A DNA stretch of 30,581 nt, from NCBI GenBank assembly GCA_973895155.1, contig OZ316895.1, positions 19,204,122-19,234,702 on the forward strand, in the 5' to 3' direction. The position numbers were made by a program, and so were the translations under genes. Within the stretch, counting starts at the first letter, position 1; each line of letters opens with the position of its first letter. This DNA is from Marsupella aquatica (Eukaryota > Plantae > Marchantiophyta). Under the pieces are notes generated by a model. That model did no database searches, was not told the origin of the DNA, and saw only the letters and a program-made list of their open reading frames with translations. This document shows, one piece after another, positions 1-28,443 of the stretch.

Positions 1-2974
1 CACATAGTTGACAAACCCTCTTTTTCCTGTCAATATCCTTCCATCTCCCTTGTTCTACTTCAAGGTGGTGTGAGCTTAGTCTATACTGAGCAATAAGTTG
101 TCTAAGTTGTACTGAGATAGTGCTAGATAAGTATTCTTGTTCTCGATATTTCTTCATGGGGTTCACATCTCTCATGTAGTATTGCTGCCGTGGGCTAGGT
201 TCATGCCAAAGTTTGTGCAAAGCCTTTTGCTCAAGTTTTGCTCTTAGCTTGGTTGGGTGTGTTGGCCATTCATGTTCAGGAAAATCCCAAGCATGGGCCC
301 ACCTGCACACATCTGCATACCACCCTTTAGCTGAAGATGAGCGCAAGGCATGAAAAGGAAATCTGTTTTCCTCCAACTCTCTTACACGCATGATGTATTT
401 GAGTGTGTGGAAGAGTGCCTCCACCTCCAAAGGAAACAAGCCTGCCTCTGCAAGTGTAAGTGCATATGGGGTTTGTGACTTGATCCCAAGCTCCATCTCA
501 AGAAATAGCTTTTGCAGCCCCTCAATCTGTTGCCACCCAGATTTAGACACACCTGCTCCCCAAATTGGTGCTCCATAAAGAATGACTGGTTTCACCAAAG
601 CTCCAAAGAGATGTTTCCTTAACCTCCAAGTGTGTAGACCAGCTCTTTTGCATTTGTTCATGAATGCATAAAAAGCTCTGTACCCATTGGCAGCCCTAGA
701 TTTTACACATGAGGCCCAACTCAAGTTTTGAGAGAACTCCACCCCAAGGTATTTGTAGGTCCTCACAAATTCCACCAGATTCCCTTGGAAGTAGAGCTCT
801 GGATTTTGTCGTGTGCCAATGCCCAAACACTTGGTCTTCTTGAGGTTGACTACCATCCCTGTTGCTTGACAAAACTCCTCCAAGGCATTGAGATGTCTTT
901 GCAAAGCTTCTTGAGCATGAGCAAGTAGGACCACATCATCTGCAAATATAAGAAGTTGGAGGACAAACCTACCCAATTGAGTGCCAACTCCACCATGCTC
1001 CTCCAAAATGTTGTGTAGCTGATCAATGAAGATGCCAAAGAGAGTTGGTGAGAGAGGACAACCTTGGATCACCCCAAGAGTGCTCCAGATTTCTTCAGAG
1101 GTTTCCTTTGAAAGTTTGATGCGCACTTCTTGGTACAATTTAGAAACAGCCAACCTGAGCTCTTCAGGCACTTCCAACTCCACCATCCTATCCCAAAGCT
1201 TGGATCGGGAAACTTTGTCAAAGGCTTTGGAGAAGTCCACAAACAAGCAAAATAATGGTTTATGTGGAGATTTGGCCTTTTCACACAACACCCTCAAGCA
1301 GAGAATGTGATCCATAGTGCTGAATTCTCTCCTAAAACCTGCTTGTGAAGGTGCCCTTTTCATCTCACTCTCCAACCAAGAGCTTAATCTGGCTTCAAGT
1401 AGTCCTCCCAAAACTTTAGCAAAAGTATTGCCTACCATGATGGTTATGTAGTTGTGCACATCGTCCTTGTTGCCTGCCTTGAAGATAGGCACCACTCTTC
1501 TGGTCATCCAAGCTTTAGGTAAACCTAAAGCCATTGCTTGATTCAGCTCATGCACCAAGTTTGTTAGTAAAGAGGGTCCTCCCCACAAAAGAAGCTCCAA
1601 GTTCAGGCCCAACAGATCTTTAGCTTTCCCATGTTGCATGTGGGAAAGATGCACCTTCACCTCCCTCTCTGTAAACTGAATGGTGTCCCCAAGGGGCAAA
1701 GGCATGCCACTAGCATCTGGAAAGAAATACAAGGATGTGACATAGGTTACCAGGTCCTGGTGATCCAAGGGGGGAGTAGTCTTGCCTGATTGCATTCTCT
1801 CCCAAAAACGTTTTGGATGTTTGATGAACTCCTCACATAGTGATTGTTGATGACTCTTCAAGAAGCACCTCTTCTTGTGTTTGATGAAGTTCTTGTACAT
1901 AGTGAATGCCAAAAGTCTCTTTTCCCCTGAATGTGATCTTGCTTGCATCCTTGCTCTAGCACAATCCTCGTCAAACCAAGCCTTCATGTTTTGCTTTCTA
2001 GGGGGTTTGGTGGAGAAAGCAGAGGCTGCTGCTTGTGCTATGACTTCTGAGAGCTCAATCTGATCATCCAGGGTATGGAGAAGATGTTCAAAGTTGGCTT
2101 TGAAGATGACTTCTCTATCAGGGTCTAGAAACAGAGGTTTGGGTACTGGCTTTCTATGCACTTTGTTTGGGATTGTGGTCAGGTCAAGATGGAACAACAA
2201 AGGCAAGTGTGAAGACTCTGGTTGTTGATCAAGTATTTGAAAGTCAACCACTCTAGTGGCAGAGGTAGGTGAGGCAAGAAGGTAATCAATGGTACTACAT
2301 CCTTGTTTAGATCTAAAAGTGTAACCAGATGATTGGGGAAATCTCTCAAGCCCATTCAATATTCTTAGATTACAAGAAGCTCCCAAATGCAAAAAGTGAC
2401 GTGTCATGTCATTTGTTCTGGTGTCAAGAGCCTCTCTCACCCAAGGTATCTCTTCACTACATGATGACCAAGGTAAAGTTCCTAAGTTCTCACTTTCAGT
2501 AAATTGTTCATTAGATACCCTGGCATTAAAGTCCCCCACTATCCATGTCTCCCCTAGTGGTGATATATCATGAATGACTTGGATTAACCTATGAAATGGA
2601 TAATGTGCATCAGCAATTCCCATCTTATAGACATTCATATTAAGGGGAGCAAAGTAGGTGACAATCAGAAATGATGGAGTACCTCTGGTATGAAGTCTCA
2701 CCACCATGAACTGCTTGCTGGGATCTTCATGTTCAATAGAGGTGATGTGTTGAAGTTGATTCTTGGTGTAGACAGCAATGCCTCCAAACCCTCTTCCCCG
2801 TGTGGTCTTCTTCTCATTGAAGATGGATTGTATGCAAGTAAAGCCTTTAATGCTAGGTAGAGCATTTCCCTCATATTCCCAAGTCTCCGTGAAAAGCAAG
2901 ATGTCAAAATTCTCAAACAAAGGTTCCCCTCCAATTGCTGTTTCTATGGAAAGTCCTGAAACATTCCATGCCAT
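1..2974 (-). CDS. LINE ORF2: apurinic-type endonuclease + reverse transcriptase (about 990 codons visible, apparently uninterrupted)
   Basis: Manual translation: (LRV)MAWNVSGL..DILLFTETW (APE); QAGFRREFSTMDHI, FVDFSKAFD, GVIQGCPLSPTLFGIFI and LIFADDVVL (RT, FADD at about 935-946); RLSSHHLEVEQGRW..RVCQLC at the window edge. The ORF track lists nothing in this frame, which fits a frame with no stop before position 1. Confidence 0.93.
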   Translation of the reverse strand, partial: MAWNVSGLSIETAIGGEPLFENFDILLFTETWEYEGNALPSIKGFTCIQSIFNEKKTTRGRGFGGIAVYTKNQLQHITSIEHEDPSKQFMVVRLHTRGTPSFLIVTYFAPLNMNVYKMGIADAHYPFHRLIQVIHDISPLGETWIVGDFNARVSNEQFTESENLGTLPWSSCSEEIPWVREALDTRTNDMTRHFLHLGASCNLRILNGLERFPQSSGYTFRSKQGCSTIDYLLASPTSATRVVDFQILDQQPESSHLPLLFHLDLTTIPNKVHRKPVPKPLFLDPDREVIFKANFEHLLHTLDDQIELSEVIAQAAASAFSTKPPRKQNMKAWFDEDCARARMQARSHSGEKRLLAFTMYKNFIKHKKRCFLKSHQQSLCEEFIKHPKRFWERMQSGKTTPPLDHQDLVTYVTSLYFFPDASGMPLPLGDTIQFTEREVKVHLSHMQHGKAKDLLGLNLELLLWGGPSLLTNLVHELNQAMALGLPKAWMTRRVVPIFKAGNKDDVHNYITIMVGNTFAKVLGGLLEARLSSWLESEMKRAPSQAGFRREFSTMDHILCLRVLCEKAKSPHKPLFCLFVDFSKAFDKVSRSKLWDRMVELEVPEELRLAVSKLYQEVRIKLSKETSEEIWSTLGVIQGCPLSPTLFGIFIDQLHNILEEHGGVGTQLGRFVLQLLIFADDVVLLAHAQEALQRHLNALEEFCQATGMVVNLKKTKCLGIGTRQNPELYFQGNLVEFVRTYKYLGVEFSQNLSWASCVKSRAANGYRAFYAFMNKCKRAGLHTWRLRKHLFGALVKPVILYGAPIWGAGVSKSGWQQIEGLQKLFLEMELGIKSQTPYALTLAEAGLFPLEVEALFHTLKYIMRVRELEENRFPFHALRSSSAKGWYADVCRWAHAWDFPEHEWPTHPTKLRAKLEQKALHKLWHEPSPRQQYYMRDVNPMKKYREQEYLSSTISVQLRQLIAQYRLSSHHLEVEQGRWKDIDRKKRVCQLC

Positions 2975-2995
2975 GACTCTCAAGGTCCCAATCCA

Positions 2996-3764
2996 TCATT
3001 TAGAAACAACTCTCTTCTTATTGGTAACAACAGCTTGTCCATTGCGCAAGTAGGCTACCAATCCTTGGTCTTTGGCTACCCTCACCTTCTCAAGCTCAAT
3101 TTTCCTTGCTTGGACTTGTGTGGGAGTCAGATCATCATCCAACCAAATCCTTAGCCCTTTAAGCATGCTCCTGTTAGCCATCACTCTAGCTTTCTCGGAT
3201 TCAGCTGCAAACTTCACCAAGATTGGACGTGGAAGGTCCCCCTTCTTTTGCCCAATCCTATATGCTTGCAAAATGATAGGGTCATGCACTTTCATCTGAG
3301 ATTGGAAGAATGAAATTGCTACCTTCTTGGTGTCTTCCTTCTCCTCCTCAACAAGGCCTGATATTTTGCAGTTGCTGACTCTTGCATGCTGGTTCTTGTG
3401 TTCTTCTTCTAGTGCTCTCCTCTCCTCCTCCTTGGCTTGGACAAATTCCATATGTGATTGTTTTGCAGCCTGTGCAAAGGTTTTGAGCTTCTCCTCAATC
3501 TCCCCTACAGCAATGTATCACTGATTTCTCTGGGCACATACTCTTCTCCATGTCTCCAAAACACGATGCAAGCAATGAGAGTTGCTTACCATTCTCCTGA
3601 GTTTGAGATCGAAGATCACTAATCAACCTCTTTTGCTTGACATTCTCATTCTTTAGCTCCGTCACCTCCTTGCTGAGCGTGGTAATCTCAATTGCGGAGT
3701 TTTCAGCCACAACTAAGATTTTCTCAAGCAAAGCCTTGAGATGGGCAATCTCCTCCGTTGCCAT
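2996..3764 (-). pseudogene. LINE ORF1 (coiled-coil + L1-type RRM/CTD-like, consensus about 256 aa), frameshifted near 3512
   Basis: ORFs 3495-3767 and 2996-3451 join. Copy B reads CAT GAG GCT where copy A has CAT T GCT (net -2). The motif PRPILVKF..LKGLRIWLDDDLT is typical of this ORF1 type. Confidence 0.88.
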
Positions 3765-3771
3765 CACAAAG

Positions 3772-3849
3772 CTGAAACTGTTGTTAGAATGTACTCTTAG
3801 ACGACAAATAGAAATTGGGAGCAGTAGAGGATGTCAGTTGCAGCTCTAC
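3772..3849 (-). other. 78-bp GT-AG intron in the LINE 5'UTR
   Basis: Minus strand reads caaag|GTAGAG...CTAACaacagtttcAG|ctttgtgATG. Copy B reads caaag|ctttgtgATG, so exactly this segment is missing there. Confidence 0.8.
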
Positions 3850-4167
3850 CTTTGCCAGTGATACACTCTCGCTGTTTGCAACACTCTGCCAAAATCTGAG
3901 CTCAAACTGCAGCCGATTGCCCTTCCAACTCGAAGTGAAATTTCGCCCCAAGCTCAGAATCCCGAAACTAGACACGTAGCAGATCGCGCATGCTAAAGTG
4001 CATACCAAACGATGTTGGTTGCAGCTCTAACTTTGCCAGTGATACATTCTCGCTGTTTCCAATGCTCTGGCAAAGTCTGAGCTTAAACCGCAGCCAATTT
4101 CCCTTCCAACTCGAAGTGAAATTTCGCCCCATGCTCAGAATTGCGAAACTGGAGACGTAACAGATCG
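3829..4167 (-). repeat. About 1.9 tandem 181-bp monomers in the 5'UTR of LINE copy A
   Basis: Unit CGATCTGTTACGTCTCCAGTTTCGC...GCACTTTAGCATGCG recurs at 181-bp spacing; same unit as in copy B. Confidence 0.93.
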
Positions 4168-4569
4168 ACCTGTCCTTGTACAAGTCGACCTCCCTCTATT
4201 CATGAACGTCTTTCACCTTCAGTGAACTCTACAATTATCACTCAAAACCAAATCTGATTGATGAAGCAATCACCAGATTGCCACATCGGCGAATGTAATC
4301 CCGTCAAGATAGTTCTTCTTGAGTAGAAAGAGAAGAAAAAGACTTACTTTGCTTCCCAGACAAGACTGATCCATCTTTGGATGTGTCCTTCACCGGCATC
4401 TTCCAAGGTCTCCTCAATCTACTCCGGTCGACAATGGCAGCTACACCAAGAACAGCTTTCTCCATTGCCTCACATCCGCCAGCCTTTGCTTCTGCAGGAG
4501 CTAATTTGGACTCTGTAATGTACGACTCTGGTATCAAGCCTCAATTTATCATATGAAAGGCTGCCTTCT

Positions 4570-6698
4570 CTATTGTGTCAAATGTAGTGCCCATTTGTCT
4601 GATTCTAAATACCATGGACAGTGAAGGACTTCCCACTCACTCATCTTCCTTGGAGCCTCCACTCCCTCACATGGGTACATCGAGTACTCTCCATATTTAA
4701 CGGAGGTTGGATCCTCTTTCACCCCTACTATCCAAGGCAAGAAGCAAGCAGGATAGGACCACCAATATGTTTTGTCAGCAACTTCTCTATCCACAAAAAA
4801 ACCATATGTATATCGCTTTGCCCTCCTCCAAAAAAGTGAGATGTCAATCTTCTCACCCGACTTTGGTGGCCAAATCTGTTTGAAAAAATGAGATTTCACT
4901 CTCGTTTGGAAATCTTCAAAGTCCTCCTCTATGTCAAGGATCAGCGATGGCTTTGTCTTCTCAGACAAAGTAAGGATCCTTGCATCTGGAATAGTTGGGA
5001 TCAACTCTGAAATAATCTCAGACATGAGCAAAGAACAAATTGACTTGACCTGCTCCCATACAGCCCATCGGTGAAGCCAAAGTTTTGTTTCGCTGTCCGA
5101 GAATTGACCAGGGTGGAAGTACTTCTTGCAAAGCTCAGGTCTGCATTGTGCCTTGAGTAGTACACATCTGAGCTGCGGAGTCAACAAAGAGACACTCGTA
5201 AATAGCCTCGCACGATCGAGACCACATGACACATTACCCCTTCCTTTATCGTCTGTTCGTTGGGCCTCCTTCCTCTCATGTTTGCAGTAGATGTGCATCT
5301 CAACACACTTCTGGAAAAAGTCACCAAACTCAGGATTCAGGAGAGGTCCAATCTTTGGCACCTTCACATTCCAATCTGCTAGTTGCTCCTTCATCATGTC
5401 TTTCATAGCCATGTCTTGCGCAGCTTTTGAAAGAGGTTCTCCTTGCGCTTCTTTCAATTGGAACTTCTTCTTCAAATCTTCCATCTGCGCTGCAATATTA
5501 GCAGCAGACAGAATGTACGTGCAGGCATTGAGTGTCATGTTCTTCGAATACCAAGCCAGTTTCCTGATATTTGCCATCTTTTGCTGGAAAAGTTTGTAGT
5601 TGGCTGCATCAATGATATCTTTGTATACAGAAAGGTCATTGCTGAGCACCTTCTGGACTCGCTCTGCTTCGAGGACCCAAGAATTCTCAACATGACATTG
5701 AGTCAACTTGAACCAAAGAAACAGGTCAGCGAGATCGCTAACAAGAGGAACTAAAACAATTTTATATACAATTCACTGCTTGAAGGAAAAGAAACAAACC
5801 TATTCAATGCATGCATTGCCGACTCAATCTGCACAAATGAGTTCTTGTCACCCTTGAAAATTTGGCAAACAACTTGAGGATGATATTTGACATCATGTGG
5901 ATTCTCGTCCGCAAGCTACATCCATTAGTAGAGACGATGATTTCCATCAAAAACACAGAACATTTTGTCTTTCAAAATTTTGAAAGCTTCGTGAGAATCA
6001 CATTTTCTCTCAAATTCTTCATTCTAAAGAATCCACATGTCATCCCACGACTCTCGAATCACATCGTCGCACATCTGGACATGGCCATCTTTGTCGGTCA
6101 TTTGTACGTAAAATCGAGGCGCATCCTCGATGTATCCCCGCATCCGGAATTCATTCTTGAGTGTCTCGATTGCAGTCAAGTTTTTTTGCAAGGACCAAAC
6201 GATCTGCATGTTTCGCATTCTGCAAAGGGGAATCCTCGGAGGAGCGAGGGGGAATCCAAATTTGTCATTTCCAAATGGGAAACGATGGTGATTGATGACA
6301 ACAAAATAGGGTTCTGAAGCTCCAGATTGAAACGTAGGATTCACAACATCTACTTGGTTCACCATCTTCGGTCTCCTCGATGTTTTCAATCCCGCCTAGA
6401 GTGCCTTCTTGTTTGCTGTGGACCTTGTCTCCCTTTGGCTTGACTCGACTGACTTGAACGATCCTATTGATGACAAGCTCTCGGGTGAAGACAATGGCTC
6501 CATCAGCGGGTCCGTGAAGTGATAAGGGTACGAACAGGTCAAGGTCAAGGGTGACATGCTTTGCAAACGTAAAGAAACCCGAGAATCGATCATGCAGTCA
6601 AAGATAGAATTGTACCCTCGTCTGTTGCTTTCACCTGAATGCAGCGCCCGGTCATGAAAAGAGATACAGATATTCTGTACGACTCTCCTCACAATCAT
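4570..6698 (-). pseudogene. Intron-containing gene with a ParB/sulfiredoxin-like domain (VFDGNHRL); several premature stops; possible extra 3' coding at 4304-4537
   Basis: One frame runs 6698 to 5800 through stops at 6396, 6024 and about 5925 and 5916, reading ..KDKMFCVFDGNHRLY*WM*..YHPQVVCQIF..AMHALN (DGNHR at 5948-5934). An intron with donor at 5799 and acceptor at 5738 or about 5708 leads into the 378-aa ORF. Confidence 0.65.
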
Positions 6699-7178
6699 TT
6701 TTTAGACACCGTCAGGTATACATGTACTTCCGGAAATACGAAGAACCGAACTCACGACTGAAAGAAAAGTCTCTAATAACAGAGAGACATGTGTCCTGTC
6801 CTGTACCGTACCATTGACATATAGGTACCCGTTGACCAATTCCAACGGATATAAACGGTCATAATGGTCACTTACGAGAAACTATTTTTGCTAGCAACAT
6901 CGCTAGCCAAAAACTGGTCACTAAATCCATGAGCTCGTGAAGGTTGTTTGGTACGTTTTTGAACCATTTTACATGGTGATTGAGCTAGCGATCTTGCTAG
7001 CTTTATCATTCCGTAAATAGTTTCATATAAGACAAAATAATGGTCAGGTAACGGGAATAAGAGGCATTTATTAAATAAATACGTTGAGTCAAACACCAAC
7101 ACGAGCACGTTTCCTCATATGTATTTGGAGAAAGAAGAGAGCAAAGTATCTCACATTTGAGGATTGTTGTAGACTGTA

Positions 7179-9795
7179 ATGTCCAAAACTGTTAGCATGT
7201 CTTCTTTGGGGTCGAAGGTTGTGATCGAGAGAAAGAAGACGGGTGATGTTGTTGTTTTGGATGTTCTGGAGAATAATGTTATCTCTATGAAGGAGTCTTT
7301 CCTCTCATCGAGGTTTGGGCTTTTGGAAGATGATTTCATCTGGAAGTTGTTCCTTCTTTACTCTCGGAATGGATCCAAAAGTCACGAGGTGCCGGATAAT
7401 GGTTCAGGAATATTGCCAGAGAGAGCTTGGGACCTAAAGTGTGGTTCAGCAACAGAGCTTGTCTCTTGTAAGGATGACATTGCACATATCAATGTTTCAG
7501 ATCCAGAATTGCCGACTTGCCCGTCACTTGCAGTACCCAAAATTATCTACATCTCCCCTGAGAGTGTGGGTTGGGATCTCTCTTCTGTGTCGACGAAGTC
7601 TTCTGAGAAAGCCATTTTTGAAGCAGCGAGTCAAAACGAGTTTCAATCTCAGCTAGTTCTTTATCGAGTTAGTGCATATGATGCCTTCCTCAATATTACT
7701 GGGTCAAGCGAGTTGGCAAATTTCCGGAGGGGAAACGATTGGAAGGAGATTCAAGTGCAGACTTTGCCCACTTCATACAACGAAAACTGTGTTTTTGAGC
7801 TTCCTCCAATCGAAGGTCAATTTCGCCGAGGATATGGTCTTCAGGATATGGATAGGGATAATGACGGCTACCCATGGACAAGACTTCTCACAACTTCAGC
7901 TAATCTCAAACCTCGCAACCACTGGTCTGTGTCAAAAGTCAGATGTGCCGGTGTACTTGAATGTCAAAATCTGGTCTGTAGAAAGTTGAAGCACACCGGT
8001 TCAAAAAATGACTCTTCCTTCCGAGAAAAGGGACAATTTACTGAGCCATTTTCATCTTGGTGAGCTTGTGGAGGAAGGAGGGTTGGTGTGCGGATTCTGT
8101 GAGGAGAGGCCTCTCTGCATCCGCGAATGTCCGGCTAAACTTTTGTACGTCTATCCTAAGCCGTCTCTTGAGTCAAATGTTGTGAAACATATGTCTCGAT
8201 TGGCTGTTCATATGGGTTCCCATGACCACGTTGTTTGGAAAGGGAAATCTCGATTGGCAAAAAAGCAGGCGAAGGAGATAGTTTCTGGTGTTCATAAAGC
8301 AAATCCCGTGTGTATGTCAGGGCATGTTCTTAACAAGTCTATAGGAAACCTGGTTTCTCTTTTGCATCCAGAGTCTTCTTTAGAACTATCGAAAGAAGAA
8401 GAGAGAGAGATTTGGGAATCGATGAAGGTTGTGTCCACTGTTGAGAAATTCCAGGCCATATTCCAGAGCGTGAAAATGGATAACCCAAAAAAAGGTGAGT
8501 TGGATTCTCTTCGTGAGATGCAAGCCCGGAATAACTTTCCTTACGTTCAGAGGTACCTTTTCCCTAGCCAGGGGAGCAAGACCGATAGGGCTCATGTCTT
8601 CAAAATGAGTACCAATGGCCCAGGTTCTGGTGTCGATATTCTCAGGCAGATGAGGAGTGGAGGTGAGCTGGAAGGAGCATGGGTCAGTTCTGATGTAATG
8701 CGGAGAATAAGCACTGGGTGGCTGACATTCAGCGCCCATGTGTACGACCATAATTACAGGTCCCTTTGTACCATCTTCACTTGTGAGCTTCGTGCGGAGG
8801 ACTCCTTATCTCTCGAAACCGCATGGAGATATATGATTGAAGTTGCCTCTGATCATGACGTGCATGACCCACTCATTGGAGGATTTATTGCCGATAATGC
8901 TGAGGCTGGATGGATCGCCATTCGGAATGTTTTTTTGGAGGTGTCCGTCACCCAGAGAAGGAGCACAGTGACGCCTTTCACTTTGCTCAATCTCTTTGTC
9001 GTCACACATTGGAGGGTATTTGGGAAGATCGTCATCGGGAGCACTATAAATTGTGGGAAAGGCTGAGAATAGCACCAACATATGTTCAGGCATACCGAGT
9101 TGCTAACGAAATCCATCGTTGGTGGAAGGAAGGAAACTGCTATGCTAGGAAATTGAAATCTCTCCAAGGATGGATATCTTGGTGGGTCATGAGGTCCAGG
9201 CAGTGGGGGAACTTCATCCGCGTTGTAAGTGTCCTATTTCCTTTCTCTTTGACGTCATTGTTTTTTTGCTAGCGACCTCGCTGGCATATCAGGTCCGTTT
9301 CTGACTGTGGACTTTTTCACAGATGCAAACCGCAATGGAGTCAGCCTTGATGCCAAATTGTACTGGAGCGGAATCAGTCCATGCATCCATGAGATCCTGC
9401 CAAATGAAGAAACTAGTGGGATTGATTGAAGCATCTGAGGTGGACCAGAATCGTACTGCGGGGAAAAATTGTTGCTTTTACTGCCTATAGTGAAGGTGTT
9501 CACAGAGGCCAGGGGCTGACCATTTTGGAATTAGCATATAGGAACGCCGATGCTATGGGATCAATGGATGCTTACAAAAAGGCAGCAAATCTTTTGCTTG
9601 AGTCTTCAGCTAAGTATGAATTCTATAGAACAGTACCATTACATGGCGATATCCGAACAACATCCACAAAGAGGAAAGGGAAAGCTTCAGCTACAATCCA
9701 CGAGAATGACTCCCACAGACATGACAAAGTGTCACGCACAACAACTTCTCCTTCAGGTCTAAAAAGGCGTAATCTCTATCCTGAATTCCGCTTCG
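7179..9795 (+). pseudogene. Mutator-like (MULE-type DDE) transposase with GCM-like Zn DNA-binding domain, 5' part
   Basis: DGYPW..VRCAGVLEC...C..CGFC..ECPAK..HMGSHDH is GCM/WRKY-like. WVSSDVMRR (D1), GFIADNAEAGWIAIRNVF..DAFHF (D2 plus the CxxH-equivalent) and PNCTGAESVHAS (E, about 9371) form the triad. Intron gtaagt..cacag at 9225-9322. Frameshifts near 8020, 8935 and 9460. Confidence 0.75.
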
Positions 9796-9799
9796 TCAA

Positions 9800-10950
9800 T
9801 GTTTCGGAGCTACTTGGGAAGCTCAGAATTAAGGCTATTATGGGCCTGTGGGATGAGGCAACCCACTCTTGGAGACCGTTAACAGAAAGGTGGCACAAAC
9901 TACGTGGGTTTGACCTGGCTTACCGGGACCGCAGCAGGCTCTTTCTTCAAAAGATACGGGACCAAGCAAACTGTGACTGGGGATATAAACCAGGTGCAAG
10001 AATGTGGCGCTGGGCTGATGATCAGAGGTCTTCAACGTATTTTAAAATACCCAATCATCGCATTTACCAGATGCTGAGGCCAAAAGGGGCTGATTATCAG
10101 AGATGGAACAGGATATGGGGCTCAGAGTACACGGAGACACAATGGATGAAATGCTAGGCAAATCTATGGCGATCTGATCTTTCTACAAGGGCTAAAACCT
10201 TCATCTGGAGAATTATTGTGGGAGGTCTCTTCACGGGCTCCCGAGCTCTTACCATCGGGGCGGACTGGGGATCTGCTCCTTTTGCTTGGAACACCTGGAG
10301 ACGATCCCCCACCTTTTCTTTCACTGTCCATTTGCGTCCACATGCTGGAGTTTTGGGCTTGAAGTGGGACAGGGCTTTTTGTTCAGTTATGGACATGGTA
10401 TGCTGGATCTACTGGAGGCTTTTGTCGGACGAGCACATACCCACACTACTAGACTATTTCTAACGTATAAGCTACTATGGGCTCTATGGCTAGCACGGAA
10501 TGAACAGGTTTTAAAAAAACTGAATAAACGTGCTTTTGATTTTAAACTTGTGCTTTCAGAAACTGTTTCCAACCTGTTTGCTGTCAGCAGACGTTTCCCG
10601 CAGAGTAGGAAGTATGACAGACTGCAAAGAGCAAGGGATTGGCTGAACGCAGAACGACTGAGATTAAACTATAGAAATGACTTTAGGATTGTTCACTCTC
10701 AGAGACATAGGGACCAGGTTTAGAACAAAGTTCAGAAGATTATGCTGGTAATAGCACAAGGGTGATTGAGCATCAGGAAGATTGCTCCTTATGCTTGGAA
10801 TGGCACTGTTTATTGGATTGATGAGGTGGTTGTCTAGGACCATAGATTTTGACAACCACCCTTGTCGGGATGTGTATATAATATTCTGTCTGTGATGGAA
10901 CATTCCCTGTTTGCTCCCCCCCGCCGTGGGGTTTTTGCGGCTTATTTTAT
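9800..10950 (+). mobile_element. 5'-truncated L1-clade LINE fragment (zf-RVT C-terminus + 3'UTR) inserted in the transposase gene
   Basis: W..LWRSDLSTRAKTFIWRII..C..ETIPHLFFHCPFA..W..LLWALWLARN is the typical C-terminus of plant L1 ORF2. TGG-to-TAG change at 10155 and a frameshift near 10275. Boundaries are approximate. Confidence 0.8.
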
Positions 10951-10953
10951 TTT

Positions 10954-13107
10954 TGTCACGCGATTGACATGGGTCTTAACACCAAAAACGTCACTATGGG
11001 TGCCAAAACCATCTCCTTGTACCTGAGGATCACGAAGGGATGTTGTGAAGGCTGGTAAACACCAGTTTATGCCCTTAACACCAGACTATCATAGCAAGAC
11101 TCCGTCACACATCACCCAAGCTCAATCCCTAAGAACCAAGGTTGGGAATCAGATCCGTGCTCATGATAGTTTTGGTGATAAGGGGCCTTCATATTGGGCC
11201 CGTACACACAGGGCCTAGCGCTACGGTGCGCATATGTCTATACGTATGCTTACTATAATAGGTATATTTCTATTCCGCCGCCGGAATGTACCAATCAACC
11301 AGTGACTCCTGACTGATTCCCGGCTTAGGGACTTCTAAGCCATTGCCCCACCACTCTGCCATTCCACTCTCAGCAATCAGAGCTGTGACAGCCTTCACCC
11401 AACCCACTTCAATGCACCCGGTACACCTCTCAGTGGCACTGCTAGTCCCATCAAATACTCAGATTGCCTCGCACACACACATATCCATGAGAGAAATGAG
11501 GCCTGAGAGGAAAACTCAATTAGATTCAAAGATGTGCACAATAGTTCACTGAGAACACTTGATCCGAACACTAGGCTCGAAGGCTGTCTCCTCCAAATTG
11601 CGACGTGGTTGCCCTGCAAGCTCAATCCTGAACCTGAGCCCGGCTCACTCCAGATTGCGATGGTAGATTGGACTTGAACCAATCCCGTACTTGCCTTGCA
11701 AACTCAATCCTGAACTCAACCTCCTTCACTGCACTTCATTCTTGGGGCACATACAGATCTCACACCTCCATTTCAGAATGTCAAGTTACGCATGCACAGT
11801 TGACTCGACTTCAAAGCTGGTACCAAGCCTAACGGCGATCTACCCCAGATTGCAATGAGGCCCGACCTCATGCTTGCCCTACAAGCTCAGCCCTGGCCAT
11901 AAATCCCTTAGTGCTCTCCACCAGACAAAGGCCGGGACTCCCCATGGATCACGTAGCCTTGCCAGACTAAATTGTAAATGCTCCTCTTGCTGCCCCTCAA
12001 TCAGTATCTCAGCCTCCCTAATGTGTTCACCAAAAATCACATTGAAATCCTCCCCATAGTTTACAATCACCAACACATCACCTATCACCAAGGCTCTATA
12101 TCGGGGGAAAAGAACCCAGTTGTGTTGCCTACTAGAAAGAGCCACAATCCAGCTTGCAAACCTGGCCAACTGTTGCTGTGAAGCGTGGCTGATTACTCCC
12201 TGAGTAATAGCACAACCAAGCTCTCCCCAACACACAGCTTCCAAGCCCAGCCTTCCTTGCATAGAGCTCCTCCCTACTGCTCAGTCTACGTGAGATCACA
12301 CAACTGAAGTTCCCCCCCTGCCTCTACCGGGGGGCTGCTCTATATACTCTCATACTGAGCCCAAATGGGTGGATACTACGCTGCTGGAGCCCCATCCCAG
12401 CCCTAACAGAGCCGCCACTATCTCTAACTATTGAACCCTAACTCGCAACTTTATTTCTCTCTCGAATTGGCTATGTACTTCGGATTTGGCCCTCCTCCAT
12501 GGTTTTTGCGAGCTTGCGCCTCCTCTCCCGATTTCTCTATTCAACCATTTGCTGCGTGGATAGAAGCGTTGGAAGCGGCTTGAGCTCCTCTTTCCAAAGA
12601 GGTCAATTATAGCCGATTTGGGCAAATACAGAGAAAGTTGTGCCCCCGCAACCGAGAGGGGTACTCATTGCTATGCTAACCCGAGTTACATAGCTAACCT
12701 GAGTTCGGCTAACCTAGCTATCCTATCTAACCCGAGTAGAGCTAACCCGTGGTCTCGGGTTAGGCCGCTACCCGCTATCCGCTAACCTAGGCTAAGCTGA
12801 GCCCAAACCCGAACTTGCCTATGCTAACCCGAGCCTGAGTTTAGGCTAACCCAAGTTCAGTCTAACCCTGGCTCAATCTAACCCGAACCCGGGTTAAGCC
12901 TAAGCTGAAGCCATGCTGACCTGAGCTAAGCTGAAGCTATGTTGACCTGAGCTAAGCTGAAGCCGTGCTTACATGAGCTAAGCTGAAGCCGTGTTTACAT
13001 GAGCTAAACTGAAGTCGTGCTCACATAAGCTAAGCCGTGGCCGAGCTTAGGTTAACCCGAAACCGAAGCCGGATCCGCTAATTCCGGCCACAAGTTAACC
13101 CGTCACA
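10954..13107 (-). mobile_element. Probable LTR or LTR-retrotransposon fragment
   Basis: Ends TGTCACG...CGTCACA form an imperfect inverted pair. The minus-strand start TGTGACG..GGCCGGAAT resembles the one at 17848. Internal tandem repeats and a TATA-like site near 12340. No TSD found. Confidence 0.5.
12899..13036 (+). repeat. 26-bp tandem repeat, about 5 copies (GCTAAGCTGAAGCCRTGYTKACMTGA), preceded by degenerate GCTAACCCGAG repeats (12670-12898)
   Basis: Units read directly in the sequence. Confidence 0.85.
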
Positions 13108-13420
13108 CTAATCAGGCCATATCTTCCTTAATACACCTCCGTTTCCCGAGTGTTTTATATAGATTTTACTTGCCTTGACCAGATCTTTCCAATGCTCTTT
13201 ACAGATCCGGATTCGGTGATGTATTGAAAGAGATATGGTCGCCAACCATCCACGACATAGCTTTTATTTCCCTACTCAACGCCATGATTGCCCTTATTCT
13301 TGCCATATTGCTAATTGTTATGCAATATCAATAGTTACTCCTTGTATACAGCAACCTACTTACTCAGATTATAGAATAAGGACCATGTCATCGGCGTCAC
13401 AATTTTATAAAAACCCCCTT

Positions 13421-14513
13421 TCAAGGGATGTTTTGGAGACTTCTACGGATCCAGAAATAGCAAAGAATACAACTTTGGCAAACCCTGTCGGAGGTTGCTA
13501 TGCTGGAGTTATCCATCTTTTGGATGACGATGGTGATGATGCAAGTCATAATGTCAATGATACCAAGCAGATGGGGACTCAACCTTTGTGTGATGTCGGG
13601 GACGACCATCGGGATGCCCCCCCAAAGGATCCCTTCCATCCGAGAGGTTGATGTTCCTTATGGGACCTGGCATCTCAGGCGGAGTGGTAGAGGTGCTGGA
13701 CCTGTTTGCAACGGGTCGGTTGACCAAAGCGTTTTTGGAAGAGATGAATGTAGAAATCTCATCAAGGAGACTGGATGGAAGTCCGCACAAGGGGGAATTG
13801 TTGGAGTCGCCATTCACGGGTTGCGATTATCGTCTCCACATCGCCAGTTGTTATACTTCTGTCCTAACAATAAGTGTCACAAGAGCCGAGGACGCAGAAC
13901 TCTAGCTCAACTACCCCCCCCACCCGAGTCGCTCAAGGTTCAGCGTGGGACTTGCCTCTCCCATCCCGAGATAGATTTTCTGCTGGGATTAGGATACCAG
14001 ATCAGTGGACTGTCCTATGTGGATGCAAATCAAGTTGGGGAGTTCCCATCCCCAATCGGGTCAACCTACAAATTGATGTTAACTCATTCCCCGAACGAAT
14101 CGATCTAACTAATGTGGACCGTTGGTTGAAAACCCAAAATGGTAAGGGTGCACGACAGCGTTTAAGCAATACTCCAGAGTTGCTCAAGCGCATCGTTTTT
14201 GCTACACAATTCACATGAGAGTTGTTGGAAATGAGAAGGTACTACCGGAAATGGATGGGGTTGGAGATACTTGATCGCCACTCACGAGACTGATTCACAA
14301 GTTCCGCACACATATTGGGTGCAAATCTGTTGTTTCCCTTCGTGTTCTTGTGAAGACTTTTATAAGAGGCATACACAAGGGAAACCATACATGTCTTGTA
14401 AACATCTGCTGTGGGTGTATTTAAACAAGTTTTCACTCAACCTGGAGAAGGACAACCTTGTCAAACAGCCGATTCTGACTATTGGGGAAGTGAGGTGTTT
14501 AATTCCGTTATAG
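13421..14513 (+). pseudogene. Probable 3' part of the transposase gene with a SWIM zinc finger
   Basis: YWVQICCFPSCSCEDF..PYMSCKHLLWVY matches SWIM CxC-n-CxH. Overlapping frameshifted ORFs start at 13235, 13500, 13874 and 14271, on the same strand as 7179-9795. Confidence 0.72.
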
Positions 14514-14835
14514 ATAGGGGACTAGTCATTTATTGGAGATGCTAATTATAGGGTGGTGGGATGGATTACTCGAGTTTGTGGTTTCACAAATATCAATCTA
14601 TTTTCACCGAGTGAACCATAATGTTAGCAAGGTCCATAATGTTATATTATATGGTGGTTGTGTTCGTTGTTTATGGCTAGCGATCTCTCTAGTCTTAGGA
14701 AGTGTGCAACAAACGGACAGAAACATCGACTTCCAGCCGTGTTCACCTATGGACAAGGATGTATGTAGTTCAGGGTTTGATGATCAAAATGACGCCAGTT
14801 CTTTGCTAGCGAGATCGCTAGTATGATCAACGGAG

Positions 14836-14863
14836 TTTAGGGTTTAGGGTTTAGGGTTTAGGG
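14836..14863 (+). repeat. Interstitial plant telomeric repeat (TTTAGGG)4
   Basis: Four perfect units. Confidence 0.92.
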
Positions 14864-15237
14864 TCAAAAGTTTATTGTAGAGTGATAGGATGTGTTCTTG
14901 GGAGGGAATTGTTCCCTCAAGTTGTTGAGGTAATACTCTGCCAAATTGATTATCTAAGATGAACCCATCAAAGATTAATCTGAAATGTAGAGTCAGTCCT
15001 ATACTAGCGATATCACTAGTCTGGGAAGGGTTCATGTGTGTCTCCAAAATAAACGACATATTCAAGGAAAGTGGGGCTCAAATAAACATACTATGGACAA
15101 AATGTCATTCAAGGACAACACAGAGAAAGGAAAGGAACACACAAACTTTACTTCTCATACATATTGAAAGTACATGAGGACATGTCATTCGCTTGAAACT
15201 ACAAAAATTTCAGTAAACCCACAACCTGACTCTCCGC

Positions 15238-15830
15238 TCAGGGGCTGGCCGCCTTCCATGCATCGGAGTCAGTGTCTGACTCCGAATCGTAATCCAAAGA
15301 GGCAAGGCGTTCCTTGGTCCAGTAGTCATGGATCTCCCTATCAATCCAATATTGCTCCTCTTCTGCAAGCCTCTTCCTCTTTGATACGGCCTTGCGCTGT
15401 GTGGTATCCACCTTCGGCTTTGGTGGAGACTTTGCTGCTGGACCTGACTTTGGAGGAGTCGGTGTTCTCCTCAATGATGATGATGATCCAATAGATTGAC
15501 CGAGTGCGGTTGGGACACTGCTATCTGCGGAGACCTTCACAGTGTCGGCATTGGGTTTCTGCTTCGGCCGAGAGTCATCTTCTAGAGGGCCATCCGTCGC
15601 CGGGTTGTAACAACGGATCTCAAGTTGCCATTTCCCCTAAGGAGGATTGCTTTGAACCCTTGACATTTCTCTGCACTTACAAAACCCAAACAATGATTAA
15701 AAAGAACGACATTCACCAAATGGAAACACTTTTCATGATGAAATACGATGAATGTCATGCCTTGTCGGAGAGTTCTTCCCTGAAAACAGCTCAGAACCAT
15801 AGACCCGCGCATACCTGAACTGGATCTGGT
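15238..15830 (-). pseudogene. Small spliced gene of unknown function with basic then acidic C-terminus, convergent on the transposase
   Basis: Exon from acceptor tgcag at about 15672 reads EMSRVQSNPP*GKWQLEIRCY...KRKRLAEEEQYW..DYDSESDTDSDAW. The upstream exon is uncertain. Confidence 0.4.
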
Positions 15831-16439
15831 GAGCGTTGAGAACTTGGAACACTGATAGCAGTTCCGAATGAAAGAGCTCGAGTCGGACGCGGTGGAAGTG
15901 ATCGGGAGAATGATTCAGAAGACTGGTGGTTTTTGGGTGACTGGCTTTGTTTAAGTGGACGGTTCGCCTTGGGTTTGCCTATGGTTTGAACGGTAATTGT
16001 CCCGTTCACTTGCAAGTGACTTAATTAGTGTCCAAACGGCCTTAATCCTCCTTTCCTTGACAGTAATGACACGTTGATTCTTGTCACATGGGAATTGTGC
16101 AGTACTTTTTTGTTATGGGAATTTTCACATGTGGAAGCATGTACGTGGAGCCCGTACCTCATGTGAGTGGCTCAATGTGTTGGCGTCATTAGACTAGCGA
16201 TTTTGCTGGCCTGAAGAAAATGTCATTTTGACTGATCGAAAATGGATCTAGTGCATTCAAGGGACTAGAAAATACTCATCGTTACGCATTTCTTGTGTCA
16301 TTTTTGTGTCATTATTTAATGATCAAACAGGGTCTTCATGCTAGTGAGGAAGATCGGACCTTTTTTTGGGCCCCAATACAAGGGGAAATCTTGCCTGTGC
16401 GAGCAAAAATTCTACTGTTTGCTTGCACGTTACAATTAC

Positions 16440-17848
16440 CCGTCAGACAATATAGCTAGCGTCCCATCCAAACTGATGGGACGAGATCCCTTCTCGGACT
16501 CTATCCATACAAGAAGCCTCCATACAGCGATCATCCGTACAGATAGTCTCTGTAAGCAGCCACGCCTTCCAGGAGGGGGTAAAGGGAGGACAAGGTCTTC
16601 CATAGACCTCATTGTTGTTGGATTGAGACCGCAGTCAAAACTGGTGTCGGGGCCGCAACAGTCACCGTGTTGTCTATCGGGGCCGTCTCTCGGGTCCGGA
16701 CTTGTGCGGGCGACGATGTGTTACCCGGCCCATATCGATGTGCCCCTGGTGGTCTCCGGACAAGAGGAGGATGAGCCTCCTTGTCCTCTAAGCTGATGTT
16801 CACCGTATTCACCACGGATCGTACCCAAATGGTTGGTGCGACTGGTGGTGGAGAGCGGCTTGAATGAGGCTGAGGCGGCAGTTGTGATGGTGCCAATGAG
16901 TTGGCTACGGGTGTATGGTTGAAGTGTTGACTCGATTGTATTAGGATTCAAAAGGTCAAAGGGGAATCCAAGTGATGTTAGGATTGACGACTTGATCGTA
17001 TTCAGACTACCAAATCGATAGTCAAGGAAGGACTGAACTTTGGCAGGTATATGGTCAAAGTGATGACACTATAAGTCCACCATGCCCGGGATCATGAAGA
17101 CCTCGTCCGGAAGTTGAAGGAGCGCTTCTTCAAAGCCGAGGTACTTTGAACCATTGAAGAAGATTTTGGTGATCTTGTCATCTCGACAAAATTTTCTCTG
17201 AAAGGGAAGGTTGAGGTTGTTGTTGTAGTGAGAGCGCCCGGCCAAACAGATGAGTCATTCGTACTCTCTTTTAGCTTTGTACCTGTGTGGGTTGAATTTG
17301 GCAAGCATTTTTGCTAGATGATTACCAATGGACAGAAATTGAAGCCAAAAGCAAATGGCCAAACTAGACATAATTGTGACAGACATATGGTGAGGTGTGG
17401 TGGATAGCTAAGGAAGGAATGGACAAGCTAGGATCAAAGTTGGCGCAAGGAGTGAAGTGCCAATACTAAGCAAGGGAATGGCTTGCCTTTTATACCCTGG
17501 TGGGACGTCGGTCGATTGGCCCCTGCCCCTTTATGATAGGCCAAGTTCTTCACGCTTATAGTGTACCGGCCACTCCGCAGGTCTGAATCAAGGCGTGTTA
17601 GAGAGCCGCTTCTTGATCCGTTATACGGACCCAAGGTAGACGGCCATAACAAACTCATAACCCGGCGGTATGGGTGGCGCTCTGCCGCCAACCCAAGCGT
17701 AAATGCTCTTTATTGACTAATTTGGTCATGATTACTAACTATTTTAGTGTTGCTATGCAAATAACTATGGACTACTAAGTCCGTAGCGTGTGTGATCAGC
17801 ATGGATTAGGCCGGATTACTCATTTCCGGCCGTGTTGGCGGCGTCACA
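16440..17848 (-). mobile_element. LTR-retrotransposon 5' fragment (LTR about 17848-17329, PBS-like site, decayed internal leader/gag-like sequence)
   Basis: Minus strand TGTGACG...TATAAAA...TCCA is followed by TTGGTAATCATCTAGC. The left boundary is approximate. Confidence 0.5.
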
Positions 17849-17874
17849 AGTTAGAATTCTAGAAATCCATAATA

Positions 17875-20300
17875 TTGTCTGATTGCACACCGTCTACAAT
17901 TCTTGCTGAGCACTCCATGAGATCAAACACCATCAACAGCACAATGGTGTTTCAGTCTTGCTTGAAGGATACAGGTGTCCATGCAAGACGGCAGTTGTTG
18001 AATGTGGAAGACCAAACAAACCCAAACATGGCGACAACAAAACAAATGCTCAAGACAACCAAAAATTTCAGGTAAGAAATGTGATTGCTTTTTGTGCATT
18101 TCTCTACCAGAGTAATTCTATTTTGGATTCAGATGGTCTCAGTCCGACACGATTTGTCATAGAGTACTGGAATTTTTGGAATGTTTGGTTCAAGTTTTGT
18201 TTTTGATTGAGACCATCTGAATCCAAAACTATTATCGCACATTAGAATCCTATTTGTTTCCAATGCTTGAGTTGGGGATAACTGACTAGCTATCCTTTTG
18301 GATTGTAGGATTGGTTGGCTCTGGCAAGAATGTCTATGGGAGGAAGGACTTGCAAAATGTATACTGGCTACTTTTTGCGGACAAAAATCTTTTTGAGTTG
18401 TGGCGTTTAGTATGTGAGATGTGGTTGCATGGGAAACTTTATGATGGAGCTGGGATGGAAGGAAATGACAAGTCCAAAAAAGCAATTACCGTTGCCATGT
18501 TTCATCCCTTTGATGGTGAGTTGATCTCATAGAGAGACATCACAAAAATCCTGACACAGGTGAAGTATTGTTGAAGAAAGATGCCACAAATAAATCTGAC
18601 ATCCCCTCAATAGAAGAGCTTGCAAAGGATGTGAAAAAAATGAGGAAGCTCAAGTCTCTTATTGAAGAATACTACTTTAGCAAGGATGCAAGGAATTTTC
18701 CATTGGATACCGACTAGAATAAAGTAATAGAGGTTCTGCCATTGTTGAGTGTTGATGCAGAATTCAACAGATGCACAAGAGCGGTTGGTGAAGTCTTTTT
18801 TTTAAATCTGTTGAAGCCAAATCATACTAGGGAGAGTGCAATCTTGCCAATAGCTTTGGTGATGTGCCTTGATGACATTTACTGCCAGAAGTTTGGTGGA
18901 GGGACACATTCTCAGAGCCAGCTTGTGGTTCACGTTCTTTAGTGACAATCTAATGAAAATAATAGATCCAGCAGCATTAGAAGAATCACCTCCAACGTGC
19001 TCACTTGCCACTTCATCAAAAGCAGTGGACAAAAGCAAAAGTTTTGGTCCTTCTACAATACATTGTGGAGCTACCACAAAATCTTACAATTGTTGTAGCC
19101 ATAATTGTTCATCCAAGGCCTCTTACAATGAATGTCCTAAGTTCACTTTGAAAATTGGGACAAGAGAAATCTCTCACCATTCACATTGAGTATGGGAGTT
19201 ATTCTCAAGAGGATCAACCGCACCCGCTTGATTCATGTTGGGGGTGCGGAATTGAAGAAGTTATATTTGCAGGAATTTCTCAAGATGAAAATGTCAATTG
19301 GAATGATATTTTCAAACCCAATCACCCAAAGCCAAAATTATTTTTTGGTTCAAAAGATACTAATTTTGAGGTCAGCAAGATTAACACAGGGAAGGCGAAC
19401 GTTGACACAGACGACATGTCAAAACCCAAAGATCTAAAAATGATGCTGACCCCACAAGAGGCGACCAAGGTTTTGCACATGGCCCCTCAATTGGAGATAG
19501 GTGGTGCTCGCAGTGGTTGGGTGAATCCACATGCCAAACCCACGCGGATGATATAGAGGATTATTCAATCCTTGTCAGAAGCTGGAGACTTGATATTTGA
19601 TTTTTTCTCGGGTGGTCAAGTGATGATGACAGCGTTCTTGTTGCAGCCCAAATGCTTGGTTTATTGTGACTCTCAAAATGAGAGACAATTTGTGGAAGCG
19701 TATGCTTCATTCCTTTGCGAGAGGGTCCCCACAATCAAGGATAACTGGGATCCTTGTGGTGGAAGTTCTAGACAATGGAAACCCACTATTGTGGATGTTG
19801 CTGCCAAAGATGAATCAGTTGATAATTCCAGAGAAGAGGATGCTAAGTCAGTCAAAGATGATGGGGCATCGGAGGTGGCATATGTAAAGAATTTGGATGA
19901 TGGTGTAGGTCAAAGTGAAAGCATAGAACCCTATGATGTTGATGATAATATTGGACTTCACCACGCCCTTCATCAGGTCCAGATGACATCCATGTGGAAC
20001 CCTATGAAGTCAAGGTTGATGCCAACTTGGACAAGGATGGTCTCAATCCAAATGCGCTGCAACGACAAACAAACAAAATTGGAGAATCGATTGACATTGA
20101 TACATTTGAAAACCGTTCTTCAACCAATTTGGTCATTGATGGTGGAGAGAAGCAGGTCAATTTGAATGAAGCTAACACCCAAGAATTTATTCTCGTGAAG
20201 GCTATTGAAGTACATGAGATTCCCATCACCCCAGAAGCCCATGCATCAACGACTATTGACAACCAGGCAGGTGCTTCAATTTTTCCTGACACTCGATCTT
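17875..20300 (+). pseudogene. Degenerate spliced gene with a C-terminal N6-adenine/N4-cytosine DNA-methyltransferase-like motif and an acidic tail
   Basis: ORFs 19155-19556 and 19572-20165 share a frame across one TAG: VNPHAKPTRMI*RIIQSLSEAGDLIFDFFSGGQVMMTAFLL, resembling HPxxKP..L.ERLI..S..GD.VLDPFxGxG. Intron gtaag at about 18071 to ttgtag at 18308. No DPPY/SPPY motif found. Confidence 0.55.
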
Positions 20301-20532
20301 TTCAACTTTTGATGACAAATTGGTTTTTGTTTGTTCACACTCGGGAAGTCCCATTGTCCTTCCGCTCTCAAAGAAAAAAGGGAATAGAGTTGGATCAAAA
20401 GGATGGAGGTCACTTGAACGTGATGCATGATGTTACGTGTGGAAAAGGGGGCCAAATAGAGGCCAAGAAAACCGCAACATTTTGCCAAAGGCGTCCAATG
20501 CGTAGCAAATCGGTTTAGGGGTCATTTTTGTA

Positions 20533-21400
20533 TTAGTGAAGTGAGGTGACAAGTTCATTGTCAAGTTCCGCCTCAAGACGTAAGCTACATATACGGTGCT
20601 TCACAGCCCAAGGAATCTTATTGCTATTGAGGTCCAACACACTATGCCTAAATTGTGACTTCCAAATTTTTGTTACACATCTCTTACTAAGTTGATCATA
20701 AGTAATCTCATTTTTTGCCTTGTCTCTCTTTGGAGAGTTTAGAAGAAGATAACAATGAATGTCACTTGCATGTGACGGTGTCTCAAGACATGGCCAAAGA
20801 ATTGTTAGAAGAAAAATTTCTCCACTATTGGCATGCGTGTAGGGCATTGGAAATAGTCCGGTCATGTCTGGGTTGGCAAATGCCTTCAAAGGGGAGTCAT
20901 CCACAAGGAGTGTGTTGGTTTTATCATATAGATTTCCAAATGCACTCCATACCACCCAAAAATCCTTGAATAGCACATTTGCCTTCCCATTTGTAATGTC
21001 ACGCCTTTGAATGCCCGTGTCAAAGGCTTCCACTTGTGTGAATACAAACTTCAGTTTCAACCGCTCCTCAAGAGTGAACATCATGTTCAACATTTTCACT
21101 ATTCGCAACATCCCAACACATGTCCAAATTGCAACGTCAAACCGGTCAAAAACAAACTTTAGAAACTCATGGAGCCCTGGCCTCTCTGTATACATGCGAC
21201 TAATTCCATTTGCACTTTCCAATGCTCAAACAGTCGGGTAAGCGTGATCGGACCAAGATTGGAAAAATCCAATTCTTCTGGTATTGGAAATCAGGTTTCA
21301 ATTCAAAAACAATGGCAAAATCATGTCCAATTTTATTAGTATGGCATCATGCGGTTCGAGCACTTTGGAATCGATATGCAATGTGCAATGTCATAAATTG
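20533..21400 (-). pseudogene. NIF/FCP1-like (HAD superfamily, CTD-phosphatase-type) gene, degenerate
   Basis: RPGLHEFLKFVFDRFDVAIWT..KDFWVVW..NTLLVDDSPLKAFANP..GLFP are NIF-domain motifs. The N-terminal DxDx motif is not intact. Confidence 0.72.
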
Positions 21401-24730: not shown

Positions 24731-24899
24731 ACAAAATGGAATGGGCCCGAGGTACCTAGTAGCCCATCTCAAGGCTGACTGCTCCTTGTAACACCTGAAT
24801 GGAAGTCTCACTAAAGACTATACCACTATAGTACCTGCTAGTATCAAATCAAAGCTATGGAACACAATGTACCTACCTACATGTCACTGACCTCTAAAA

Positions 24900-26760: not shown

Positions 26761-26781
26761 GTTGTCAACGTAGGCTCCATT

Positions 26782-27644: not shown

Positions 27645-27651
27645 CTTTGTG

Positions 27652-28422: not shown

Positions 28423-28443
28423 TGGATTGGGACCTTGAGAGTC

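Follow-up and report, generated by a model that had tools for sequence, protein, structure and literature searches.

A decayed, likely Mutator-type DNA transposon with a ParB-like accessory gene and dispersed palindromes in Marsupella aquatica

We analyzed a 30,581-nucleotide stretch of Marsupella aquatica DNA (contig OZ316895.1; the window, to which all coordinates refer) and found in it a DNA transposon, likely of Mutator type, whose accessory gene is ParB-like; the transposon is repeated, and the copy in the window is dead. The window is rich in repeats and contains GT-AG introns, long interspersed nuclear elements (LINEs), a long terminal repeat (LTR)-like repeat, and a TTTAGGG stretch. 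Two of its genes are arranged head-to-head, one with a DGNHR motif (minus strand, from 6503) and the other for a DDE transposase (plus strand, from 7179). We propose, with a probability of roughly 0.55, that the ParB-like protein would recognize the element's palindromes via its helical domain, that a nucleoside triphosphate (NTP)-gated step would carry a modifier, and that this would shield the family from silencing. The palindrome-bearing unit is composed of the following features.

4573 to 5706, minus strand: ParB-like gene exon 2; helical domain (profile E value of 6e-80)
5707 to 5799, minus strand (approximate borders): ParB-like gene intron, containing the palindrome copy at 5725 to 5742
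5800 to 6503, minus strand: ParB-like gene exon 1; disordered N terminus and predicted ParB/Srx nucleotide-binding fold; IPLCR box at 6233 and DGNHR at 5948; four in-frame stops
6504 to 7178, no strand: head-to-head spacer; palindromes at 6890 and 6984
7179 to 9224, plus strand: transposase exon 1; ubiquitin-like N terminus; GCM-like Cys/His pattern at 7944 to 8229; D at 8692, D at 8893, and DxxH at 8970; frameshifts at ~8030 and ~8935
9225 to 9321, plus strand: transposase intron; palindrome at 9268
9322 to 9809, plus strand: transposase exon 2, 5' part; catalytic E in GAESVH at 9371
9810 to 13438, plus strand: insertion of 3,629 bp; 5'-truncated LINE (zf-RVT fragment in its first part) with a solo LTR inside
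10954 to 13401, no strand: solo LTR-like repeat nested in the LINE; TG...CA, ATTTT target duplication; much higher contig depth
13439 to 14513, plus strand: transposase 3' part; conserved GTWHLRR segment at 13653; SWIM-like CxC-x15-CxH at 14343 to 14411; frameshifted
14676 to 15020, no strand: three palindromes (14676, 14805, and 15003), plus (TTTAGGG)4 at 14835
About 15238 to 15812, minus strand: small convergent frame; rich in Pro, Ser, and Lys; acidic tail
16193 to 16210, no strand: last palindrome copy; the palindrome-bearing unit may have its right end at ~16.3 to 16.4 kb (unproven)

The gene layout, the decay, the nested insertion, and its empty site are established. The original prediction, drawn from the sequence of the window, had placed the two head-to-head genes about 480 bp apart. 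The arrangement stands, and the spacing needs correction: the start codons are ~675 bp apart when the ATG of the ParB-like gene is set by homology at 6503, the shorter distance being that from an upstream ATG at 6698. Both genes are decayed, as had been read from the letters, with four in-frame stops in the DGNHR gene, two frameshifts in transposase exon 1, and a frameshifted 3' part of the transposase; because both are broken, this copy cannot itself act. The small convergent gene is present as a frame, and the mudrB-like helper role once suggested for it found no backing; in a Pfam scan the frame had no family match (no homologue search was made with it). The upstream spacers also contain AACGG/CCGTT motifs (6829 to 7054 and 15989 to 16039) at 5.6 to 5.9/kb versus 1.1/kb overall (seven sites, small numbers), presumably resembling the plant MSA cell-cycle element.

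The insertion that had been seen to split the transposase at about 9800 to 13400 was confirmed and placed at 9810 to 13438. It is flanked by an 11-bp target duplication, ATGTTT(C/T)GGAG, at 9799 and 13428, and contigs from three of four public sequencing runs (X1, X2, and X5) skip exactly 3,629 bases, which reveals the empty site. Excising the insertion keeps the transposase reading frame in phase.

We then looked into the predicted fold of the DGNHR domain. An AlphaFold2 model built from a 111-row alignment had a predicted local distance difference test (pLDDT) score of 91.7, and a VIA structure search of 48,161 solved chains returned only 11 matches at a Z score of ≥2, all 11 of them in the ParB/Srx superfamily. 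KorB was the best match (Z of 7.3, root mean square deviation [RMSD] of 2.6, 92 residues), and PadC, pNOB8 ParB, Srx, SerK, Atu1540, SbnI, SspE, Spo0J, and BrxU were also found; the top match in Foldseek was ParB-CDP (E of 0.17). The domain is thus confidently predicted to have the ParB/Srx fold that its signature motif had suggested, with a helical insert of ~45 residues inside it. This fold does not by itself establish which nucleotide is preferred or that DNA is bound.

A HMMER search with a 200-residue exon 1 query among 1.84 billion representatives retrieved 223 relatives at an E value of ≤0.001 (a word-indexed search for long exon 1 relatives gave none); 150 of the 223 were listed, and the counts of exon matches and alignment ends given next rest on these. 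Since 15 of these 150 match both exons, we consider exons 1 and 2 to encode one protein. Among the 76 listed relatives that reach the end of the query, 56 break off within 25 residues, as expected if the intron position is shared. Clustered at 50%, the family numbers at least 223 members, in which the intron position and the NTP motif are conserved: DGNHR is kept in 86 of the 131 relatives covering the site, box II (GxxR) is present as GNHR in our gene, and the box I arginine is kept in 84/99 aligned relatives and is W in the decayed Marsupella aquatica copy. Exon 2 has an open frame at 4603 to 5760 (~370 codons), and the gene probably runs on leftwards, cut by a LINE copy (LINE A) near 4170. 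No Pfam or NCBIfam family scored above cut-off for the ParB pieces, sequence searches of the PDB came back empty or at chance level, a profile search of the PDB gave no relative of exon 2, the Atlas gave weak leads for exon 2 (DUF6551 and DndB, with scores of 0.77 to 0.82, below 0.9), and all Atlas structure rows for one relative, P0038, had TM scores of <0.3.

Some relatives hint at fused partners. A methylase-like [FI]xD(M/F/V)P motif, recognized at the motif level only, follows the helical domain in 3/17 relatives checked, and a distant relative, P0123, carries DGNHR and NIF domains fused in one chain. No prokaryotic relative was found by sequence among prokaryote contigs and phage records, and viral contigs yielded no usable locus; one of the contig searches reported a single candidate relative, for which it gave no locus. 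Fusions of ParB with N6/N4 methylases are reported to be common in phages (PMC12704722), and phage ParB-like proteins can activate DNA-modifying enzymes (PMC13229309), which fits a prokaryotic origin.

The transposase has five relatives with 48 to 53% identity. All five share a Cys/His-rich segment with an HxGxHxH-like end, followed by FDVM, MADN, and D(A/C)FH, and the alignment with all of them ends at the position of the transposase intron of the window. The catalytic D, D, and D-x-x-H are kept in 5/5 relatives and in the window. The E is found in the window and in L001, a 2-kb contig that was the sole locus from one metagenome scan; the L001 protein is ~66% identical to the window transposase, extends into the next exon with GAESVH, and matches the transposase again beyond the insertion (E of 4e-6). 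DxxH also occurs in hAT transposases and so is not exclusive to Mutator or Mutator-like elements (MULEs). In the model of one relative, P0005, residues 567 to 645 match the insertion domain of ISCth4 (residues 261 to 333; Z of 7.6, RMSD of 2.8, 72 residues), a match that comes from a weak model and ranked eighth among helical bundles in a wide fold search, which did not recover the RNase H core. Separately, residues 1 to 90 of P0005 form a confident ubiquitin-like (beta-grasp) domain (Z of 6 to 7 to RBD, DWNN, and PB1 domains); a PB1 domain is found at the N terminus of plant MuDR transposases. ISCth4 belongs to the IS256 family, is related to MULEs, and has an insertion domain that begins with C/DxxH (PMC7780238), and the MULE architecture combines a GCM1-type finger, a catalytic domain, and SWIM (PMC1702500). 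The motifs and the ISCth4 match support a Mutator-like transposase, as in the original prediction. The Cys/His patterns are conserved, but the Pfam scan gave no GCM or SWIM match, and neither Pfam nor NCBIfam had a family above cut-off for the transposase or its five relatives. We consider the transposase to be Mutator-like, with superfamily membership unproven.

We next evaluated the palindrome GCTAGCG-N4-CGCTAGC (18 bp), which has 10 matches in the window at ≤3 mismatches versus 0.26 expected, a comparison that is post hoc because the pattern was drawn from those sites. Eight of the 10 fall within the unit (5725 to 16210), all of them in introns or spacers, in line with the recurrence across the unit noticed earlier, and the remaining two represent one site, shared by both LINE copies. 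The transposase intron of L001, which corresponds to that of the window, contains three near-perfect copies, while none was found at ≤2 mismatches in 200 shuffles. One palindrome of the unit is directly followed by a telomere-like (TTTAGGG)4 stretch (14835 to 14864), and contigs of run X2 link repeats of this type to positions elsewhere in the unit.

The main alternative is that the palindromes are binding sites of the transposase, contacted by its GCM-like finger for autoregulation or synapsis, with the ParB-like protein doing other work, such as a nonspecific NTP-dependent or nuclease function. The one independent occurrence of the palindrome, in the transposase intron of L001, is in keeping with this explanation, and in the 2 kb of that contig no ParB gene can be seen. 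Transposase binding sites normally cluster at element termini, whereas here the palindromes occupy internal spacers and introns, one of them lying within the ParB-like gene itself. WRKY-GCM1 domains of transposases have been proposed to regulate their own expression (PMC1702500), and Srx, SerK, and SbnI are described as having the ParB/Srx fold yet binding no DNA (PMC12704722); on the other side, inverted-repeat arrays also accompany ParB-like genes in the unrelated Plavaka elements (bioRxiv 2025.02.11.637652). We judge transposase sites to be an unlikely explanation of the palindromes and favor recognition by the ParB-like protein.

The unit was then compared with other sequence data. Seven public runs from five studies, with no RNA run listed among them, contain parts of 4300 to 9800, and six were compared. 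The summed contig depth over 4.1 to 21.3 kb is far above that of exact-match contigs in X1 to X4, and it reaches thousands in X1, X2, and X4, where exact-match contigs have a depth of ~35 to 175; contig depth is no copy number, and the high sum suggests tens of copies or more. This bears out the claim of a repeated multigene unit. In X5, which carries another organism label, overlapping or neighboring contigs of 87 to 93% identity cover both exons of the ParB-like gene, the spacer, and the start of the transposase, and the listed pieces leave 260 bp uncovered. The co-occurrence of the genes at other loci, which had been put forward as a check, is supported only indirectly; no contig of the runs compared was seen to hold both genes.

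We consider it very improbable that the ParB-like gene has no role for the element, having been captured as passive cargo or having come to lie among nested repeats by chance. The window is indeed full of repeats inserted into one another, and none of the records contains both genes. Against this, the noncoding spacer is conserved at 87 to 91% in X5 together with both gene starts, the palindromes tie the spacer and the introns of both genes together, and the family, with its at least 223 members, has kept its intron position and NTP motif.

To the right of the last palindrome, we found two genes that may belong to the element or to a neighboring unit.

17917 to 20300, plus strand: methyltransferase-like gene, decayed; beta-class N6/N4; HAKP and DFFSGG; membership in the element uncertain
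20533 to 21225, minus strand: NIF/HAD-phosphatase-like frame; PF03031 at an E value of 5e-8; convergent on the methyltransferase-like gene; membership uncertain

The methyltransferase-like gene matches PF01555 with an E value of 2e-5 and 25 bits, compared with a cut-off of 26.7, and M.RsrI with an E value of 0.017; it has a relative, P0157, and no DPPY-type motif was seen in it. Its intron holds a 24-nt near-perfect inverted repeat (hairpin; 18121 to 18228). Both genes, which had been overlooked when a right terminus was suggested at 16394, sit at repeat-level contig depth. That terminus was not confirmed: the depth does not drop there, and no terminal inverted repeat (TIR) partner or target-site duplication (TSD) was found for it. 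Since no palindrome of the unit lies beyond 16210, ~16394 is still a plausible end of the palindrome-bearing unit, and the left end is probably beyond LINE A, outside the window.

The two genes raise the possibility, to which we give somewhat less than even odds, of one element of at least 17 kb (4.2 to ~21.4 kb, insertion included) in which the ParB-, methyltransferase-, and NIF-like functions are separate genes representing a split form of a fused accessory protein. Contig depth is of the same order on either side of 16394 and falls after ~21.3 to 21.6 kb in X1 to X5, high-depth contigs carry an indel at 16389, and P0123 joins DGNHR and NIF in one chain. The shared depth is not specific to one element, however, because the LINE and the solo LTR are also shared with X5. 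Moreover, no palindrome (≤3 mismatches) occurs in 16211 to 21600, the methyltransferase is not close to the C termini of the relatives, and no TIR or TSD was found near 21.4 kb. Scans for TSDs and inverted repeats comparing 16.3 kb with 21.2 to 24.5 kb gave chance-level matches only, and neither ParB homology nor a second palindrome family was detected at 16.3 to 21.6 kb. It is not certain that the element reaches 21.4 kb, since the LINE and LTR repeats are likewise shared across runs. Such a larger element is compatible with the ParB-palindrome mechanism that we favor.

Several other features were observed around these borders. A frame at 16436 to 17308 (minus strand) has 4 stops in 291 codons (8 to 17 in the other frames) and no Pfam match, and is possibly a further decayed gene. 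Two short motifs occur in the same order at 16318 to 16360 and 21221 to 21254, near both candidate right ends, at a level close to chance. The LINE copies at 1 to 4167 (minus strand) and 26778 to 28900 (plus strand) are 99 to 100% identical in opposite orientation, with 181-bp tandem units in the 5' region and a large internal deletion in the right copy. By eye, short TCCGAT/ATCGGA-type motifs are abundant at 24000 to 26300, perhaps as subterminal repeats of another element.

We propose the following mechanism for the ParB-like protein and the palindromes. The DDE enzyme would cut and paste the unit. The palindromes would serve the ParB-like protein as parS serves ParB, as sites for loading via its NTP site and the helical domain that follows. 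Once loaded, the protein would carry a modifier onto the promoter spacer and the introns; this may be a methyltransferase-like domain, which relatives have as a fusion and which is perhaps altered in its catalysis, or another modifier. Binding at the palindromes would thereby mark the element and may help the family to escape silencing by the host.

A number of observations weigh against this proposal. On the side of the protein, Foldseek gave no match at an E value of <0.001, all Z scores of the ParB-fold matches are middling (<8), the helical domain has no demonstrated helix-turn-helix (HTH), and the methyltransferase-like gene has no detectable relation to the C termini of the fused relatives. 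Phage ParB-like partners, furthermore, are reported to activate DNA-modifying enzymes without NTP binding or an obvious DNA-binding domain (PMC13229309). As for the palindrome, the count in the window is post hoc and its sole independent evidence, L001, ties it to the transposase rather than to ParB. On the side of the transposon, the transposase has no Pfam or NCBIfam match, and no PDB profile match either, the P0005 model is poor (pLDDT of 47.8), the window yielded neither a TIR partner nor a TSD for the element, and no contig of the runs compared spans both the ParB-like gene and the transposase.

The element had been thought to be undescribed, which is not the case for its design. ParB-like accessory genes have already been published on Sola1-1_Ec32 of Ectocarpus, on red-algal Plavaka elements, and on Mutator elements of Chondrus (PMC12477816; bioRxiv 2025.02.11.637652), and our element is a land-plant-type variant of this design known from algae. 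For land plants, no account of an element of this kind turned up in a literature search that covered papers outside subscription journals and did not include Repbase.

In Sola1-1_Ec32, ParB and an N4/N6 methylase form one protein of 1104 amino acids, encoded opposite the transposase and proposed to bind and modify its own element, and similar proteins are cited for green and red algae (PMC12477816). Both elements have a ParB-like accessory gene opposite the transposase; Sola1-1_Ec32 has a Sola transposase in a brown alga (PMC12477816), whereas the Marsupella aquatica element has a Mutator-like transposase in a plant host. The methylase half is fused in the Sola1-1_Ec32 protein, and none was seen fused within our window; our palindromes are dispersed, and the string "palindrom" is absent from the main text of that paper (PMC12477816). 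In the Plavaka elements of Bostrychia (17 to 19 kb), the ParB-like gene and a PF01555 methylase gene are described as separate, inverted repeats are suggested to be the sites of ParB, and homologues of their accessory genes PAG2 and PAG3 are reported on the Chondrus Mutator elements (bioRxiv 2025.02.11.637652). They differ from the Marsupella aquatica element in their EnSpm/Plavaka transposase and in the fusion of PAG3 to a 2-oxoglutarate (2OG) oxygenase and of PAG2 to SET; compared by description, their repeats are tandem arrays beside PAG3, whereas our palindromes are single copies in introns and spacers (bioRxiv 2025.02.11.637652).

Likenesses extend to better-known systems. With Mutator/MULE and IS256 transposases, ours shares the DDE triad, the C/DxxH that opens a helical insertion domain, the N-terminal WRKY-GCM1-type Cys/His pattern, and the C-terminal SWIM-like pattern (PMC5225508, PMC7780238, PMC1702500); unlike them, it matches no Pfam or NCBIfam model and has a GCM-type zinc-ribbon insert pattern, and TIRs and TSDs were not found in the window. 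Bacterial ParB-parS, KorB, DndB, and phage ParB-methylases resemble our gene in the ParB/Srx fold with GxxR, predicted for ours, and in the link to DNA-modifying enzymes on mobile elements (PMC12704722, PMC10853773, PMC13229309). Our gene differs in being eukaryotic and spliced, in its helical insert of ~45 residues, and in having neither a ParA nor a demonstrated HTH. The VANDAL/VANC antisilencing system of Arabidopsis also pairs a Mutator-type element with an accessory protein that acts on the sequence of that element (cited via bioRxiv 2025.02.11.637652). VANC is not reported as ParB-like in that preprint, and for our element, binding and antisilencing are only proposed here. A bolder version, which we hold to be rather doubtful, is that a land-plant Mutator-like lineage with an unmodeled transposase rebuilt a ParB-parS-like system, in which an NTP-gated clamp, loaded at the conserved 18-bp palindrome in the introns and promoter spacer, would spread separately encoded methyltransferase-like and phosphatase-like partners over an element of at least 17 kb and so provide a family-specific, VANC-independent escape from silencing.

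That ParB-like proteins of transposons bind or mark their own DNA has been put forward for algae, there as a proposal (PMC12477816; bioRxiv 2025.02.11.637652). A palindrome kept in the same intron at ~66% protein identity is a candidate site, and with this candidate 18-mer and naturally intact relatives, the binding hypothesis is directly testable. If it is true, plants would have a second, bacterially derived route to family-specific antisilencing, and a CTP/NTP-switch fold would act on eukaryotic chromatin.

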